From contig VBBT01000107.1 of NCBI GenBank assembly GCA_005881695.1, forward strand, positions 1 through 60,123: a DNA stretch of 60,123 nucleotides, read 5' to 3'. Both the position numbers and the translations under genes were made by a program. Shown here in pieces: positions 8,518 to 46,726 of this stretch (position 1 is the first letter of the stretch; every line of letters starts with the position of its first letter). The stretch is from Candidatus Bathyarchaeota archaeon (GTDB lineage: Archaea > Thermoproteota > Bathyarchaeia > 40CM-2-53-6). Below the pieces are notes generated by a model that saw only the letters and a list, made by a program, of their open reading frames with translations, searched no databases and had not been told where the DNA came from.

Positions 8518-9282
8518 TTGGATTTTTCATCCCGAAGAAAGTGGCGAGCTTGGCTTGCAAAGAACCACCGAATTGACAAGGAAATCTGGCTAGTCTATGA
8601 CAAGATATTTTTCCAAACGCGGGCAATCTCATACAGAGATTTCATCAGCTACGCGGTCGAAGAAGCGATATGCTACGGCTGGATTGATAGTAGAGTCAAG
8701 CGAATCGGCGAAACAAAACTTGGAGTACGCTTTACCCCACGTAGGTCGAGAGGCAACTGGTCGAAGTACAACGGGGCTCGCGCGTTGAATCTACTTCACA
8801 AGGGCAAGATGACAAAGGCAGGCATAGATGCTCTCCCACCAGAATGGACAAACAAGAATGTGGACAGACACCAAACTCATAGAAGAGCGATCGCTGACTG
8901 TGTGGATGGAATTCTCGTGGAGAGCAGGAAGTTCCTAGTCGAGAAAAGGCGAGATGACGACGTTGCGGATCCGGGACTGATAGAGATCCCTGGCGGTCAT
9001 GTGGACCCCGGCGAGACCTTGGAGGATGCTTTGAGAAGAGAGATGAAAGAAGAACTCGGAATCAACGTCGAGAAGGCTAGACTCGTGCAGAAGAGCTTGT
9101 ACACAGCGACCAGTGGCGAGAGACAGAGAATTCACTATTTCCACGTGGAGAAGTGGAACGGTAGAATCCGGTCTACAGAGGCAGAACGGGTTTATTGGGA
9201 TTCTGAGGTTTCCAATCTCAGCATTATCCCAGACAGAAGAGCCGTTCAGAAAATCTTGAGGGTCCAACACCACAGAAAATAG
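8518..9282 (+). CDS. YdeI/OmdA-like N-terminal domain fused to NUDIX hydrolase
   Basis: WRAWLAKNH...AVEEAICYGWIDS...FTPRRSRGNWS; complete Nudix box GGHVDPGETLEDALRREMKEELG. Confidence 0.8.
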   Translation: MDFSSRRKWRAWLAKNHRIDKEIWLVYDKIFFQTRAISYRDFISYAVEEAICYGWIDSRVKRIGETKLGVRFTPRRSRGNWSKYNGARALNLLHKGKMTKAGIDALPPEWTNKNVDRHQTHRRAIADCVDGILVESRKFLVEKRRDDDVADPGLIEIPGGHVDPGETLEDALRREMKEELGINVEKARLVQKSLYTATSGERQRIHYFHVEKWNGRIRSTEAERVYWDSEVSNLSIIPDRRAVQKILRVQHHRK

Positions 9283-9473
9283 ATAGGAGGGCCTCTGCGA
9301 AGCCGGCCAGTCGCAGGCAGCGAGTCCAGACCTGAGAGCCACCGTGAGGCTCTGGAGTTTACGGAGGACAGCTGTTTAGAGGGGGGTACTGGGGAACTCT
9401 AGTTTTGAGGCTCAGTTAGTTTATGAGGCCCGAGTCCCGAAAATCCTCTTTCCCGACGTTCCCAGGGCAGCCA

Positions 9474-10782
9474 ATGGTTAGAGGAGTTACGATATCTGCG
9501 AAGCCAGGTAAGGGCCGAAATTCGGTACTACATAGATGCTCACAAGGCTCAGAGATTCAAGGTTAGCCTCTTCGAGCTAATGAGCCTGAACAGTTTTCCC
9601 AACCCCGTCAACCAGACGCTTTACTTCAACAATGAGGAACACGAAGTCCCCTTCACGTACTCGATCAGAGGAAGGAGATACGAGCAAAAGCCGTTCAAAG
9701 AATGGTTCAAGCTCAAGCTGAGCGACAAGTGGATTTTCGAAGTGAAGAACACCCGGTCAGAACACGGTCGCTTCATCAGGCACAAACGACGAAACGAGAT
9801 GCTACCTCTTCGAGAAATCTTGTCGAGAGTAAAACGAATGGGCCAGCTCGGCCGTGTCCGAATTCCCCATAAACTCGGAATCTATGCGGCAGCCAGTTAT
9901 TCTAGAAATCACTTTCTTGAAAGCGATCGAGGAGTGAGGGTCACGATGGACGAAGATGTCCGGTACTTCACTTTCGATGGGCTTGCAGGGACAATGCTTG
10001 GCGCCTCGAACCGGGCCATTGTGGAGTTAAAGATTCCACCGGGCAGAACAAGTTCTCCACTAGTCAGAAAAATCCACAGTCTGCTTAGGAAAGAGAACGC
10101 GGAACAGGGAATTTCCAAGAAGGCCACGATCTTCAATCTCATCGAGGACCGAGCAAGGAAATCAGGCGAAGCCTACAAAGAACCGAGCCACAACACAGAG
10201 ATCAAAGCAAAAGTTGCGCTTGACGCAGAGGACCAGGACATTTTCCCCAGGATCAGGAGCGATCTAGCAAAAGGAAAAATCGAAGGCTTCAGACTCTCCG
10301 ACTCTTACCCAAGTGTTATGGAGACTGGTAAGCTCTACCACTACGTTCAGATGCCCACGCACGAGTACGTCAGGTTCGAAACCAGTGGGCAGTCAAGGTC
10401 CGCGACGATCAAGGAGAACTTTCAGGTCGTAGAGGATCCCTACAGACTCGGTAACGTGATCAAGAGGCGAGAGATTGAGGAGCCTATTCAGCCAGATATG
10501 CTGAAGATGCCCTACAAGATTCTCACCAGGAGGAGGAAGTACTTCATGGTTGAACGGGATGGGGGGAGAAGGGAGTACGCGGTGATGATGGATAGGAGCA
10601 CTCATCGAGGCCACGAACTCTACCAGCTGGAGGTTGAGGACGTTCTGAATTCTCCTTCTTCGAGGACAGAGACCCGGAGCATCAACGATGTGGCATCCAT
10701 GGCTAATTATCTCATAGAAGAGTATTCACTGGAACCTACGACATTGACGAAAAATCAGTGGCTGATGAGTCTGCCGAACTAG
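9474..10782 (+). CDS. Tandem VTC-like plus CYTH (double triphosphate tunnel) protein; ORF-track start 9580, frame extends upstream
   Basis: Domain 1: RAEIRYY, TLYFNN, IRGRRY, FEVKN, YSRNHF, RVTMD, IVELK, SKK. Domain 2: EIKAK, KRREIE, RRRKYF, MMDR, QLEVE, TK. Confidence 0.7.
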
Positions 10783-10789
10783 GGTATCT

Positions 10790-11584
10790 TCAAGGTTTGG
10801 AGGCGATTCGCGAAACCGGATTCTCTCTGGAGACTTCGACGAATTTCCGATAGTTCTTATTCCGATTCTCGATCTCAATGTTCAGCGCTACTAGAATCTC
10901 CGCCGATCTTCTTAGCCCCTGAAGATACTCGATCATCACGTCATGGTCGCGTATTGTGCCAAGTAGGTCTTGCCACGATCGGAGGGTCGCTAGAGGTTTT
11001 GGAGGCCTTGAGAACTCTGACATTTCCAGAACATAACGAAGTTGTTTACAGTCTCTCCTTACGACGTGCAGTCCCTCCACTTTTGAAGGGTCCTCCCTTA
11101 CTAGCGGGAGTTCGCTGGTGATCTTCGAGCCTAGTTTTCTCACGACTTTGTTGTATCTTCTCTGGAGTATGGGGTCGGAAAGGTCTCTCGGTTTTACACG
11201 GGGTCCTGGGTCTTTCTGAACGGACAAAGCTAGCTCTTTCGCTTGCTCGAGGTGGGACTTGCGTGATTTCCTCAAATCCTCTATGAGCCGTTCGTACGCG
11301 GGATTCTGCTTGTACTCTGACAGCTTCGAGAGAATAATATCTTGGTCTCTCACACTAGCGTTTACTTTCATCAACTTCTTGATACGAGCCATGGCTTTCT
11401 GTGCCTTGTTCTGGTTCCTCGTGGCCTTTGGAAGCAATGCGAAGGCTGACTGCAGTCGACGGGTCGCGGTCCGAAGCCTGTGAACGTTCTCGGCGTTTGG
11501 GTCTCTGAGGTAGGCCTTGACTCTCCGAGTCAGCGCTTTCGCGAATCTGGTGTACTCCTTCGCAAAAGACTCGCGGGTAATCAA
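10790..11584 (-). CDS. CHAD domain protein (polyphosphate-binding)
   Basis: VHRLRTATRRLQS, VRDQD, LHVVRRDCKQLRY, QDLLGTIRDHDV motifs. Confidence 0.92.
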   Translation of the reverse strand: MITRESFAKEYTRFAKALTRRVKAYLRDPNAENVHRLRTATRRLQSAFALLPKATRNQNKAQKAMARIKKLMKVNASVRDQDIILSKLSEYKQNPAYERLIEDLRKSRKSHLEQAKELALSVQKDPGPRVKPRDLSDPILQRRYNKVVRKLGSKITSELPLVREDPSKVEGLHVVRRDCKQLRYVLEMSEFSRPPKPLATLRSWQDLLGTIRDHDVMIEYLQGLRRSAEILVALNIEIENRNKNYRKFVEVSRENPVSRIASKP

Positions 11585-11632: not shown

Positions 11633-13096
11633 CTACAGGGCGAGCTGAAGATTGAAAGCGCCTTCAAGGTCCTCGAGGTCTCTCAGGATATTCTTCATGA
11701 GCACCTTTGGGATGTGTTGCTTGCCTTGGACTATGTGAAGGCGGGGGACCCCGCGCTCAGAACTCATGGTTAGATCGATGTCCGTCTTCTGTTGGAGTTG
11801 AGCGAGTTGTATCAGGACTGAGATCTTCTTCACCATCTCCATGCTTTTCTTGTCAAGCAGGCGCTTGTAGCTAGTCTCTACCCAATCTGTCCTTCTCATC
11901 CCATTTGCTCTTGCAACAGACAGGGCCATAATGAGCTGGTCCACGTGTGACAGGACACTATCCGCCTCCAATACTATGTAGAAAAGGGTCTCGGGATTGT
12001 AGATGGGAAGGTCCGGCAAGACGTGATCGAGGGCTTCGGAAAGAATCGCGTACTCCCTCTTTGTCAGGTTTCTATGTGATAAGAGAGACTTGGCCAGTTT
12101 TTCTTGGGCGGAAGCTTTCACGTGCGCTTGTGCCCCTTCGCGCATCAGAACTCTGTCTACGAGTCCTTGGCGGTACGAGCTAGGGCTTTCGAGGAAACCT
12201 GAGAGCACCCCGTCCCTAAGACCATGGGTACTAACAATGAGTTTGCGGAAACCAATCTTCTCCATCAAGAGGTGAACTACTAGGGACCCGGCGATGATTG
12301 ATTGGCTTCTCTCTTGACCTATGGCTGGATTCTTTCTGATTGCTCTTAGACTCATTCTGCGAAGGGCGCGGTGTACTGATTCCACGGCGTTCCTCTTCAT
12401 CGAGTAATTGTGCAGCTTGTTGAGCGGGTACTTGCGACGCATCTGGTCATACCTGGCTAATGCGCGCACGGAGCCTCCGACCCCTACGAGGTCGAGGCTT
12501 TTCGAAGTTGGAAGATGTTTCTTCTCCGGCAGGAGTTCAAGTATCCGTTTTCTCATCCGTGCATAGTTTTTCTTTGTGTAAGACCCATTTGGTTTAGCGT
12601 AGAGGTCTGTTAGCCTTAATCCTCCTAGAGGGACTGAGAGGATTTTTCTGATAGTCGGCTCCGAGTAGATGACCATCTCAAGGCTTCCTCCTCCAAGGTC
12701 GAAGAACAAGCCGGCATGAACGCTGGTCGCGCTCTTCGCTCCTTCGAACGCGTATACCGCTTCTTCTTTTTCGGAGAGAACTTTGAACTTGAACCCAGTC
12801 TCCTGGTAGGCTTGTTTGAGGAACTCCTCTCGGTTCCCAGCCTCCCTAACGGCGCTGGTAGCGACAGGGAGGACGTAGCTTGATCGCTCAAGGTCAACAA
12901 TCGCGCGGAACTGTTTCAGAGCTTTGAGAGTACGTCGGATGGGTTTGTCTCCGAGAAAGCCCGTTTGATCAAGCCCTTCTCCAACCTTCGCGAGGACCGA
13001 ATGCTGTCCATACGCGACGAACGACTTGTCCCGCCTAACTTTGTAGTTCACCAGTTTTAGCGAGTTGTAGCCTAGGTCTATCACGGAGACTTTCAA
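11633..13096 (-). CDS. ppx: Ppx/GppA exopolyphosphatase family protein
   Basis: IDLGYNSLKL, ATSAVREAGN, EKEEA, DLGGGSLE, GVGGSVR, GLRDG. Confidence 0.92.
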   Translation of the reverse strand: MKVSVIDLGYNSLKLVNYKVRRDKSFVAYGQHSVLAKVGEGLDQTGFLGDKPIRRTLKALKQFRAIVDLERSSYVLPVATSAVREAGNREEFLKQAYQETGFKFKVLSEKEEAVYAFEGAKSATSVHAGLFFDLGGGSLEMVIYSEPTIRKILSVPLGGLRLTDLYAKPNGSYTKKNYARMRKRILELLPEKKHLPTSKSLDLVGVGGSVRALARYDQMRRKYPLNKLHNYSMKRNAVESVHRALRRMSLRAIRKNPAIGQERSQSIIAGSLVVHLLMEKIGFRKLIVSTHGLRDGVLSGFLESPSSYRQGLVDRVLMREGAQAHVKASAQEKLAKSLLSHRNLTKREYAILSEALDHVLPDLPIYNPETLFYIVLEADSVLSHVDQLIMALSVARANGMRRTDWVETSYKRLLDKKSMEMVKKISVLIQLAQLQQKTDIDLTMSSERGVPRLHIVQGKQHIPKVLMKNILRDLEDLEGAFNLQLAL

Positions 13097-13164: not shown

Positions 13165-13782
13165 TCAAGACATCTTAGCGATAATTTTCGGCGTGAGAAG
13201 CCAACGGAGTTCGCCGGAGATTCGAGGTGAAAACGATGTTATTCGGACTTTTGCGACCCCTCCCTTTTTCAGAACGATTTTGGCGCTCGTGGTCCCGATG
13301 ATCTCTCCTATCATGGAAGTCAGGTAAGGTTCGTGGCCTACAAGGATTGGTCTGAGGTTTTGTTCGAGTCGTGCAAGTTTGCGATAGAGTCCTGTTTTGC
13401 TTCCGTCTGGTTTCAATTCGTCCCATTCTTCCAATGTCGGGATCTCGAGGATCTTGGCCGCAATTTCAGCGGTCTCTCGAGCTCTTCTCAACGGACTTGT
13501 ATAGATCCGGTCGGTTTGCAATCCGATTGCCTTCAATGACTTTGCTATTTTCTGCATCTCGGTTCGGCCTTCTGGTGTTAGGGGTCGTTCGGAATCCTTC
13601 TCCACAACTGTCATTCGGTTCCCAGCCTCCCCATGCCTGAGTATGAAGAGGTCGATTTTCGCAGAGCCCGCCTTCTTTGATGGAGTCGGAACGGGCGTTA
13701 GTGAGGGTGCTCTCTTTATTTCGACCTCTTTTTTGTCCGAGAAGGCGCGCCGTTGTCTCCTTGCTCTCTTGGGCTCTGTCAA
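13165..13782 (-). CDS. sixA: Phosphohistidine phosphatase SixA
   Basis: ILRHGEA, RPLTPEG, TSPLRRARETA, LVGHEP, LKKGG. Confidence 0.9.
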   Translation of the reverse strand: MTEPKRARRQRRAFSDKKEVEIKRAPSLTPVPTPSKKAGSAKIDLFILRHGEAGNRMTVVEKDSERPLTPEGRTEMQKIAKSLKAIGLQTDRIYTSPLRRARETAEIAAKILEIPTLEEWDELKPDGSKTGLYRKLARLEQNLRPILVGHEPYLTSMIGEIIGTTSAKIVLKKGGVAKVRITSFSPRISGELRWLLTPKIIAKMS

Positions 13783-13849: not shown

Positions 13850-14656
13850 ATGAGTTGGACTAGGATGGTCAAGCTACCGCGGGCTCTCGGTTTCGGCCGG
13901 GAGATCGAATCGATCCTCCTCATACTGTCAGACCATCCTGAGGAAATTGTTAGAAAGATTGCTGATAAGAAAAGTGTCGGAGATTATCGTCTGGTTGGAG
14001 AGAAGACTAAGTTTCTTGCCGACACATACTTCGACACTCTCAACCACTTTCTTTCGCATCGCAAGTTGAATCTGAGAATACGGGCAGACAACCAGGATCG
14101 TTGGATCACCATGAAGACGCATCCTAGACGAACTCTGTGGGGTGGAATGGTCCGAGCTGAAATGGAGGTTCCCTGGTCACAGGAGATTGTTGAAAAAGTG
14201 GTTTCCGAGCTGAAAATCCCGCATCAGCCCCCTAGTTCTGCCGGCCAGATCAATCCTTCAGACCCGATTGAACTATTGAAGAGTAAAGGCCTTGTTCCTA
14301 TCCAGCATAGAGAGACCCAACGGCAGGTACGAGATGTGACGTCCAGCCCTGAAGGGTCCCCCGTCCTAGCCGAACTAGACATTGACTCAGTGCTTTACGA
14401 CTTCGACGATCAAAAGATACGCCTTTTCGAGGTCGAAGTGGAGAGTAAGTCCGAAAAAGGTCAGAACGTAGTCAAGAGCGTTACCAGGAGCCTGAAGGGA
14501 GAGTACGGCCATATCTTACGAAGCTGGCGTCACGGAAAACTCGCGACTGGAACGGGGATCGCTAAGCTGTTGAAATCGGGAGAGCTGAAACCTCTCATCG
14601 ATGCTGAAAACCGGCTTCTACCGGCCGCCTACGACAGGCTCAACCGAATACTCTGA
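13850..14656 (+). CDS. CYTH domain protein
   Basis: REIES, DTYFDT, LRIR, ITMK, RAEME, ELDID, EVEVE, GKL pattern. Confidence 0.88.
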   Translation: MSWTRMVKLPRALGFGREIESILLILSDHPEEIVRKIADKKSVGDYRLVGEKTKFLADTYFDTLNHFLSHRKLNLRIRADNQDRWITMKTHPRRTLWGGMVRAEMEVPWSQEIVEKVVSELKIPHQPPSSAGQINPSDPIELLKSKGLVPIQHRETQRQVRDVTSSPEGSPVLAELDIDSVLYDFDDQKIRLFEVEVESKSEKGQNVVKSVTRSLKGEYGHILRSWRHGKLATGTGIAKLLKSGELKPLIDAENRLLPAAYDRLNRIL

Positions 14657-46075: not shown

Positions 46076-46726
46076 ATGTCTCTACTAGGAAGGGCAGGAC
46101 TCGACCTACGATCATGGGCGAAGAGCCTGCGACTTGCAAAACAGATCATCCTGATATGCATAGCAGGATTCGTGCTTGCACTGCTTGGTCTGCGGATACT
46201 CGGAACCTCAACAGACACCTCCATCGCCATTTCCCTCTACCGTTCCATATCCGGTGATACCCTTGTCCCTCTAGTCTTTGGGGTAGCGACGGTGGGAGAT
46301 CTCATCTGGGCCCCTCTAATTTTCTGGCTCTACGTCTTCCGCAAGGACAGCAATGAATGGAACAGCTCGCTAATACTGGCCGTGGCGATGGTGACTGCAA
46401 TGAGTCTCACGGACGTGTTGAAAGCATCTTTCAACCTTCCAAGACCGTTCCAGATGCCTTCGCTCGGAATAGTCGCTCGTGGTGAAATCCCCACTAACCC
46501 CGGATTCCCATCCGGACACACGACAAACGCGTTCACAGTCGCCACAGTGATATGGTCCAGGTATAACGCCTGGCGTGTTCCCTTCGTTCTTCTCGCGATC
46601 GCCACCGGTATCTCCATGATCATTCTGGGTTTGCACTTTCCGAGTGATGCTATCGGCGGCGCTTTTCTTGGAATCTTCTGCGGTACATTCGCTCTGGGAT
46701 TGGCGAAACTCCGGTCGACCAAGTGA
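46076..46726 (+). CDS. PAP2 family membrane phosphatase
   Basis: K....PRP, FPSGH, LGLHFPSD. Confidence 0.88.
   Translation: MSLLGRAGLDLRSWAKSLRLAKQIILICIAGFVLALLGLRILGTSTDTSIAISLYRSISGDTLVPLVFGVATVGDLIWAPLIFWLYVFRKDSNEWNSSLILAVAMVTAMSLTDVLKASFNLPRPFQMPSLGIVARGEIPTNPGFPSGHTTNAFTVATVIWSRYNAWRVPFVLLAIATGISMIILGLHFPSDAIGGAFLGIFCGTFALGLAKLRSTK

Follow-up and report, generated by a model that had tools for sequence, protein, structure and literature searches.

A fused VTC-type and CYTH-like tunnel protein in a polyphosphate gene cluster of soil Bathyarchaeia, a candidate Vtc4-like polymerase

The stretch of DNA analysed here, a 60,123-nucleotide contig of a Candidatus Bathyarchaeota archaeon (VBBT01000107.1 of assembly GCA_005881695.1; hereafter the window), encodes a 428-amino-acid protein that joins two different triphosphate tunnels. 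The N-terminal tunnel is of the VTC/Vtc4 type (residues 1-224, positions 9496..10167 on the + strand), and the C-terminal one is a divergent CYTH/ygiF-like tunnel (residues 225-428, positions 10168..10779 on the + strand). The whole two-tunnel gene runs from a CTG start codon (9496-9498) to a TAG stop codon (10780-10782), thus 9496..10782 on the + strand, and lies beside genes of polyphosphate (polyP) metabolism, in which its product very probably acts. For the N-terminal tunnel we favour, at slightly less than an even chance, a phosphotransfer reaction like that of Vtc4, which would make it a polyP polymerase. This preference is based on the apparent retention of the Vtc4 synthesis residues, including a diagnostic Lys (with K200 present as Arg), on the apparent loss of the water-activating metal site, and on the occurrence of PPK1 in 0/21 genomes of the genus.

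VTC-type polyP synthesis is treated as eukaryote-specific, and a 2026 table of polyP enzymes places VTC4 under Eukarya only (PMC13318637, Table A1). How polyP is synthesized in archaea that lack PPK1 was an open question, as described in PMC12995831, until PPK3 was reported in 2026 from Sulfolobaceae and Nitrososphaeraceae. The locus presented here provides a different, directly testable candidate, in which the catalytic Lys of Vtc4 appears to be kept, most of the hydrolase metal site is gone, and the gene is tied to those for CHAD, Ppx and SixA. If our reading is true, the catalytic principle of the eukaryotic VTC would be an archaeal/prokaryotic invention, and a fourth prokaryotic route of polyP synthesis would stand besides PPK1, PPK2 and PPK3.

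Two different tunnels in one protein

A preliminary description, made from the letters of this sequence, had proposed two successive tunnels, the first VTC-type and the second CYTH-type. Profile and structural comparisons bear this out, with one exception at the level of profiles. Pfam VTC (PF09359) matches the reading frame in the window at 33.4 bits (E 4.3e-8, cut-off 23, profile positions 2-204 of 235) and residues 6-185 of the 428-amino-acid protein at 33.6 bits against the same cut-off of 23; 36/49 family members also match it (E <= 0.01). The expected CYTH match in the C-terminal domain did not appear: residues 225-428 match no Pfam family even at E 10, and Pfam CYTH (PF01928) is matched by 0/49 family members. 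NCBIfam holds no family for the two-tunnel protein. When modelled, both halves nevertheless come out as tunnels, the first resembling Vtc4 and the second ygiF.

In the full-length AlphaFold2 model (33 rows), confidence is high over most of residues 6-220, with an overall pTM of 0.54. The N-terminal half is predicted to form a closed 8-stranded tunnel with a C-terminal plug helix, closest to Vtc4, Vtc2 and Vtc3. Its ten best Foldseek matches are all Vtc chains, led by those same three proteins (E 7e-9 and up), and VIA-align superimposes residues 3-223 of the model on residues 193-473 of a Vtc4 chain (3g3r_B) with a Z score of 15.6, an rmsd of 3.5 and 204 aligned residues, compared to Z 13.7 for ygiF and at most 12.8 for other CYTH proteins. 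A family profile of 60 rows, searched against the sequences of the PDB, found only Vtc2, Vtc3 and Vtc4 chains, at 3.6e-9 to 1.2e-5 (Vtc2 3.6e-9, Vtc4 6.3e-7); a shallow profile of 33 rows found nothing relevant there.

Residue conservation was counted over 49 sequences, reaching down to 21% identity, and tunnel residues are present in both domains, in agreement with the preliminary description. Those conserved in the N-terminal tunnel are R6, E8, R10, R58, R60, E82, K84, K97 and R99, and further along Y135, R137, R148, D152, E177, K179, S207 and K208, with K208 and R137 found in 48 sequences, K84 in 47, R60 and E177 in 46, Y135 in 45 and R10 in 40. According to bioRxiv 10.1101/2023.01.27.525886, polyP synthesis by Vtc4 requires K200, R264, R266, K281, Y359, R361, S457 and K458, while E426 holds Mn; K458 is given there as the only one of the synthesis residues that is missing from the inactive Vtc2 and Vtc3. 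In the printed profile alignment, K84, Y135, R137 and R148 of the window protein stand against K281, Y359, R361 and R373 of Vtc4; the offset between chain and residue numbers, derived from this same alignment, sets R264, R266 and K281 against Arg, Arg and Lys. In the structural alignment, the end points place R6, E8 and R10 on R196, T198 and K200, and S207-K208 on S457-K458. By strand pattern only, E177-x-K179 would fit E426-x-K428, and R58/R60 would fit R264/R266, with the HMMER alignment setting R58/R60 ten residues before R264/R266. Matched in this way, partly by end points and strand pattern, 8/9 residues of the Vtc4 set would be identical (R58, R60, K84, Y135, R137, E177, S207 and K208), and K200 would be replaced by R10.

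The same alignment bears on the first rival explanation, a double polyphosphatase in which both tunnels hydrolyse short polyP, tripolyphosphate or NTPs, as ygiF, AtTTM3 and SaTTM do, so that the protein would stand with Ppx on the degrading side. We regard this as possible but rather unlikely. Hydrolytic tunnels, as described in PMC4641920, use three Glu to bind a second metal that activates water (E4, E6 and E162 of ygiF; the acidic patch of AtTTM3 consists of E2, E4 and E171, with E90 nearby); the same source describes Vtc4 as having no acidic patch and basic residues that lead the chain out. In the N-terminal tunnel the corresponding positions are R6, E8 and K179, two basic and one acidic. 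Because R6 and K179 occupy metal-2 positions, the published two-metal activation of water could not form there. The equivalent of Lys458 is also kept, a residue that is critical in Vtc4 and matters little in AtTTM3 (its K200; PMC4641920). The retained E8, on the other hand, fits a hydrolase.

The C-terminal tunnel also bears on this rival. Residues 225-428 folded alone (AlphaFold2, 60 rows) gave a model with a pLDDT of 93.8 and a pTM of 0.89, made up of 8 long strands and, at the C terminus, a long helix. Compared with 48,161 PDB representatives, it is nearest to ygiF (Z 14.7, rmsd 3.2, 169 aligned), followed by human thiamine triphosphatase (ThTPase, 13.5), AtTTM1 (12.7) and CyaB (12.3), whereas Vtc3 and Vtc4 reach only Z 7.3-8.1. 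TTM/CYTH proteins make up the top 6 chains and 13 of the 18 with Z >= 9, and the remaining five are Mediator Med18 and RESC chains; Foldseek likewise puts ygiF first, at 1.2e-5. Strand 1 reads E235-I-K237-A-K239 in the window and E-I-E-A-K in 42/49 relatives (E235 is kept in 48, E237 in 42 and K239 in 47), and on a late strand E379, the site-1 Glu, is found in all 49 and E381 in 40. The other conserved residues are R293, K306, R324, E326, R345, K348, D366 and K419. Most relatives therefore carry the full hydrolase set in this tunnel (E-x-E-x-K plus E-x-E), and the proximity to ygiF, the E-x-E-x-K motif of the 42 relatives and the retained E379-x-E381 all argue for hydrolysis. The acidic-patch positions are E235, position 237 and E381; the window and the 4 relatives nearest to it have Lys at the second of these, so that in the window's own clade the C-terminal tunnel also lacks one of the three. 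Since K237 replaces a Glu of the metal site in this clade, its C-terminal tunnel is probably a site of binding, priming or trimming and not an efficient hydrolase.

The two halves do not appear to be recent copies of each other: internal duplication was considered and set aside, with an hhalign probability of 1% between the N-terminal and C-terminal halves. As the halves are unrelated by profile comparison, the protein is best described as a fusion of two different tunnels, one VTC-type and one of the ygiF/CYTH type. A phmmer search with the C-terminal half against 1.84 billion representatives yielded 50 hits (clusters) at E <= 1e-3, and because nearly all of them sit at the C-terminal end of proteins of 415-460 amino acids, the two-domain architecture is the rule of a small family. 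Thus, even if the protein should prove to be a hydrolase, it has a rare architecture (50 clusters among 1.84 billion representatives) and a second domain invisible to Pfam. In the class, 8/201 sampled genomes carry the two-tunnel gene, all 8 of them in the window's genus; it is present in 7/11 other members of the genus in this sample and in 0 of the other 86 genera, and among 401 sampled genomes of the phylum it was found in the window's genome alone. Related loci come from metagenome-assembled genomes of soil Bathyarchaeota, Bathyarchaeia or 'Crenarchaeota archaeon', and the window itself also codes for the large subunit of archaeal DNA polymerase D. As a lead only, the best match in the ESM Atlas is a cluster of 543-amino-acid proteins, mostly archaeal and with VTC in 68% of members (score 0.93).

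Polyphosphate enzymes of the genus and the function of the two-tunnel protein

The preliminary description had presented the protein as a candidate PPK-independent polymerase. That independence did not survive a survey of the genus: PPK2 is encoded by 13/21 genomes, 12 of which also carry the two-tunnel gene, and by the window's own genome. PPK1 domains (PF02503, PF13090) were not found in the window's genome, which is 82.5% complete, and with PPK1 in 0/21 genomes of the genus a PPK1-type synthase is not seen. The only PPK2 of the window's genome lies on another contig (G000:C144:18540-19214, - strand; locus L002, 1456-2253; E 1.6e-72) and has one in-frame TAG 44 codons into the gene, at a position where a relative from the genus (L013) has Gly. 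The remainder is conserved, with the P-loop 3' of the TAG and within a 219-amino-acid ORF that begins at an internal ATG. For this PPK2, possible explanations are a pseudogene, an assembly error or a form with a shortened N terminus. In a weak test for PPK3, the genome gave one clear and one weak Thymidylate_kin match, both on other contigs and neither beside ppx.

Across the 21 genomes, which are close kin and many of them incomplete, the two-tunnel gene occurs in 13 (intact over 428 codons in 11, broken in G099 and G205), Ppx in 14 and CHAD in 15; among the 13 with the two-tunnel gene, Ppx is present in 12 and CHAD in 12. One genome has the two-tunnel gene and no PPK2 (G202, 75% complete), one has PPK2, as a partial match, and no two-tunnel gene (G208), and seven have neither. 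One genome, G099 (91% complete), looks like a case in which the entire polyP module has been lost: its two-tunnel gene and its PPK2 are in pieces (G099:C8:471106-471601 and G099:C1:248401-249071), and neither Ppx nor CHAD was found in it. The counts show a module that is kept or lost together, not a series of independent events. The two-tunnel gene thus belongs to the polyP set and is no replacement for PPK2.

The mechanism that we consider most likely can be outlined. The N-terminal tunnel would bind Mn/Mg-ATP through E177 and a basic ring formed by R10, R58, R60, K84, R137 and S207-K208 with Y135, and, like Vtc4, would extend the end of an acceptor (Pi, PPi or polyP) by the gamma-phosphate. 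At the tunnel exit, the basic residues R6, K97, R148 and K179 would take the place of the acidic patch that holds the second, water-activating metal in hydrolases. The C-terminal tunnel would serve as a second site for a triphosphate or a chain end, CHAD would coat the polyP product, and Ppx and PPK2 would consume it. Taken as a whole, the picture of a soluble, membrane-free Vtc4-type polymerase in PPK1-less prokaryotes, whose N-terminal tunnel makes polyP from ATP and hands it on, in a two-tunnel relay, to a ygiF-like tunnel and CHAD while PPK2 and Ppx draw it down, is one that we put forward with slightly more reserve than the N-terminal reaction itself.

Several points weigh against a polymerase. 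PPK2, which is able to run reversibly, is present in 13/21 genomes and in 12 of them alongside the two-tunnel gene, so that no gap in synthesis needs filling; as synthesis can come from PPK2, this favours the double polyphosphatase too. Hydrolysis is the activity of most characterised TTM/CYTH tunnel enzymes (PMC4641920, PMC8233210), and AtTTM3 shares the arrangement of the Vtc4 tunnel centre and yet makes no polyP, as reported in PMC4641920. In favour of the double polyphosphatase, hydrolytic tunnels are joined to about half of all CHAD proteins (PMC6537752). No printed residue alignment underlies the equivalences of R58/R60, E177 and K208; they were set by the end points of alignments and by strand pattern. 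The equivalent of K200 is Arg, and the position varies in the family (R in 40, G in 5, S in 2 and E in 1 of 49), while E8, at an acidic-patch position, is retained in 45/49. In the full-length model of 33 rows the C-terminal half has a pLDDT of ca. 50-70, and the relative position of the tunnels is not given by the model. The CTG start codon, treated below, may mean low expression. Finally, a full-text literature search, with subscription journals and supplements outside its scope, returned no demonstrated activity of a prokaryotic VTC-domain protein and, by title and start of abstract, no characterised prokaryotic VTC-domain or two-tunnel protein.

A second rival explanation is a protein that does not polymerise at all, either a binder, sensor or regulator of Ppx, PPK2 or granules, or an enzyme acting on another triphosphate, for example a nucleotide cyclase. 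The yeast VTC contains the kept-but-inactive tunnels of Vtc2 and Vtc3 (bioRxiv 10.1101/2023.01.27.525886), K237 in the C-terminal tunnel and the variable K200 equivalent suggest relaxed catalysis, and class IV adenylate cyclases are among the structural neighbours (2fjt, Z 12.3). We consider this explanation improbable, however, as strong conservation extends over almost all catalytic residues of the two tunnels, in sequences that share only 21-37% identity with the window protein. The site-1 Glu is kept in each tunnel (E177 in 46/49, E379 in 49/49), as is K208 in 48/49, whereas the inactive Vtc2 and Vtc3 are reported to have lost precisely the Lys458 equivalent (bioRxiv 10.1101/2023.01.27.525886).

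Start codon and gene neighbourhood

The preliminary description had also noted that the first motif, RAEIRYY, lies upstream of the start assigned by ORF callers, and this is correct. The VTC match begins at RAEIRYY (9511), which places the first tunnel strand upstream of the ATG at 9580..9582 (+ strand), the codon chosen by ORF callers; the resulting 400-amino-acid product drops tunnel strand 1, including R6, E8 and R10. The reading frame of the called ORF (9580-10782) is open from 9427, over 451 codons, with no in-frame ATG, GTG or TTG within 9427-9579. A homologue search gave 47 relatives of the two-tunnel protein, and the full-length ones, of 428-430 amino acids, start 3-4 residues ahead of Q-V/T-R-A-E-I-R-Y-Y, at the codon aligned to 9496. 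In a set of 74 sequences (73 loci plus the window, in which some loci may be one contig present in two collections), this codon is CTG in 44, TTG in 25, GTG in 2, ATG in 2 and GTA in 1; five of the copies with TTG have an in-frame TAG immediately 5' of it. Four of the 74 (L066, L069, L072 and L078) are members of a group that shares only 57-58% identity with the window protein. Among ten loci from genomes, the codon is CTG, as in the window, in L005, L006, L008 and L012, TTG in L003, L010 and L011, GTG in L004 and ATG in L007; L009 has an ATG one codon 5' of the aligned position. The start codon is thus polymorphic across the soil population, with the non-canonical CTG as its commonest form.

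To locate the beginning of coding constraint, pairwise diversity was computed by codon position for 46 distinct sequences of the close group, mostly copies with CTG. It was 0.058/0.059/0.284 over codons 2-29 and 0.202/0.226/0.150 over the 24 bases upstream of 9496. Since diversity of the coding type is seen in codons 2-29 and not in the upstream bases, coding constraint starts at about 9496. A GGAG at 9483..9486 (+ strand), 9 bases before the CTG, resembles a Shine-Dalgarno sequence and may function as one; the stretch containing it is retained in close relatives, with variable flanking bases. We conclude from these sequence comparisons that the two-tunnel gene spans 9496-10782 and starts at a CTG, in place of which relatives may have TTG, GTG or ATG. 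The CTG majority points either to an ability of these Bathyarchaeia to initiate at CTG or to a gene held at low expression.

A further rival explanation is a decaying or truncated gene, in which the copies with CTG are silent or are read only from ATG 9580 as 400 amino acids without strand 1. The absence of ATG, GTG and TTG in frame between 9427 and 9579, the 400-amino-acid products of gene callers, and the broken copies in two members of the genus (G099, G205) could be read in this way. Nevertheless, we judge it very improbable in view of the coding-type diversity in codons 2-29 of mostly CTG copies, the predominance of CTG (44/74) across many soil samples, the GGAG 9 bases upstream, and the 428-codon frame intact in 11/21 genomes of the genus. 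Public entries do not reflect the start at 9496: the 400-amino-acid database entries P0006-P0009 begin at the internal Met, and the ESM Atlas record begins at residue 29. With gene calls starting there, annotation systematically omits the first tunnel strand from those members of the family that start with CTG, a mis-annotation (start at ATG 9580, first strand deleted) that the present analysis corrects whether or not the protein is a hydrolase.

An upstream ATG at 9474 had been proposed to join the frame if an extra G at 9477 were removed. The arithmetic is right, in that this ATG sits one base out of frame with the two-tunnel gene; the G is not extra. It occurs, with the preceding ATG, in 8/8 close relatives from other assemblies, and is therefore not a sequencing error. 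Likewise, contigs from four soil sequencing runs show no indel over 9300-10800; one of them, X2 (record 10), covers 9439-9561 with zero differences, and its run possibly derives from the same sample as the window. A frameshift or sequencing error at 9477 is thus ruled out by the DNA of relatives and by the soil-run contigs. The ATG opens a short out-of-frame ORF of 30 codons (9474..9566, + strand) that overlaps the true start and is not the gene start. ATGG at this site is kept in 58/74 sequences, with a varying frame relation to the two-tunnel gene: L024, L027 and L077 carry a 2-base deletion between the two, L033 reads ATG TAG at the site, and L031, L054 and L092 have CTG there. As a start codon, ATG 9474 was rejected, being out of frame and conserved in neither spacing nor identity.

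Farther upstream, bases 9420-9428 (TTTATGAGG) are invariant in 9/9 aligned sequences amid varying surroundings, and a stretch at 9439-9454 (GAAAATCCTCTTTCCC) is mostly conserved. Located ca. 70 and 45 bases before the start, TTTATGAGG and GAAAATCCTCTTTCCC might serve as a TATA-like box and as a leader or regulatory element, respectively.

The neighbourhood of the gene is that of polyP metabolism, as the preliminary description had stated, and it is conserved in divergent relatives. Downstream, and convergent with the two-tunnel gene, lies a gene for a CHAD protein (10790..11584, - strand; Pfam CHAD 7.6e-23), its stop 7 bases from the two-tunnel stop. It is followed by an exopolyphosphatase of the Ppx/GppA type (11633..13096, - strand; Pfam 3.4e-43; TIGR03706 5.4e-73, under that model's cut-off) and by a SixA-type histidine phosphatase (13165..13782, - strand; TIGR00249 sixA, 88.9 bits, cut-off 74.5). 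A single-domain CYTH protein, the third tunnel of the locus, is encoded at 13850..14656 on the + strand (Pfam CYTH 7.3e-15) and is also found in L004. Its gene is divergent from sixA, and its strand-1 motif is R-E-I-E-S-I, without the Lys of the usual E-x-E-x-K. Upstream of the two-tunnel gene and on the same strand is a NUDIX hydrolase (8518..9282, + strand; Pfam NUDIX 2.5e-16), which has an N-terminal extension of ca. 125 amino acids without a Pfam hit. Ddp1-type Nudix enzymes are endopolyphosphatases (PMC6537752), and by analogy this NUDIX protein may add another polyP enzyme to the locus.

In the close relative L004 the order of genes is the same as in the window, including the NUDIX gene. 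In the group of 57-58% identity (L009, L011, L066, L069, L072 and L078), CHAD is the convergent neighbour in 6/6 loci, Ppx comes next in the 4/4 that are long enough, and SixA then follows in 2; in 3 loci a PAP2 phosphatase stands in place of the upstream NUDIX. One of this group, L011 (= G125:C32), is titled 'bacterium' and is part of a genome placed in the window's genus; its two-tunnel protein is 58% identical to that of the window, and PAP2 lies upstream. This means either that a single genus contains two deep variants of the locus or that one variant has been replaced by the other. The window's own PAP2 gene is far off, at 46076-46723. CHAD is described as a polyP-binding module, with stand-alone CHAD genes in polyP operons (PMC6537752). 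A prediction of a complex between the two-tunnel protein and its CHAD neighbour scored 0.00 in two runs, without controls, and is evidence neither way.

Comparison with known systems

Among archaeal proteins, the CYTH triphosphatase SaTTM (Saci_0718; PDB 7NS8-7NSF) is a structural neighbour of both domains (Z 12.3 for the N-terminal one; Foldseek 3.2e-5 for the C-terminal one). Unlike the two-tunnel protein, SaTTM is a single-domain hydrolase with a canonical acidic patch, which prefers polyP3 and polyP4 (PMC12995831). The polyP operon of Sulfolobus acidocaldarius, sixA-ppx-PPK3-CHAD with PPK3 as the pair cPPK3/rPPK3, is similar in that SixA, Ppx and CHAD are clustered in an archaeon without PPK1, and its kinase was discovered by the same neighbourhood logic as is used here (PMC12995831). 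It differs in that the cluster in the window contains no thymidylate-kinase-like pair; the two-tunnel protein is the neighbour instead, and PPK2 lies elsewhere in the genome.

The TTM-CHAD fusion ygiF of Escherichia coli, a short-chain polyphosphatase (PDB 5A60, 5A61), is the best match of the C-terminal tunnel, and it too pairs a tunnel with CHAD. In the window, by contrast, CHAD is a separate convergent gene, the C-terminal tunnel has diverged too far for Pfam CYTH, the position of Glu-6 is Lys in the window's clade, and an extra VTC-type tunnel stands in front.

The N-terminal tunnel is most like the TTM domain of yeast Vtc4 (PDB 3G3R, 3G3Q, 5IIG, 7YTJ, 8I6V), with which it shares the Pfam VTC match and, for residues 1-224, the best structural match; judged by the alignments, the synthesis residues, including the Lys458 equivalent, would be present, and two of the three acidic-patch positions of hydrolases would be basic. 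Unlike Vtc4, the window protein has Arg at K200 and Glu (E8) at T198, is archaeal, and has its tunnel fused to a second, different one. None of the other traits of the VTC complex (SPX, a transmembrane domain, a Vtc1-like partner) was found: VTC is the sole Pfam hit, and the neighbouring genes that were scanned are neither SPX- nor Vtc1-like. With VTC as the only Pfam hit in its 428 amino acids, the protein is predicted to be soluble and uncoupled from membrane translocation. It is thus a relative of the Vtc catalytic domain only, and not of a VTC complex. The pairing of tunnels itself recalls Vtc4 with Vtc3 (or Vtc2), where two tunnels likewise work together, of which one has a complete catalytic set and the other is altered. 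Here, unlike in that pair, both are held in one chain, the halves have no detectable sequence relation, and the second tunnel is ygiF-like, with a Lys (K419) in its plug helix.

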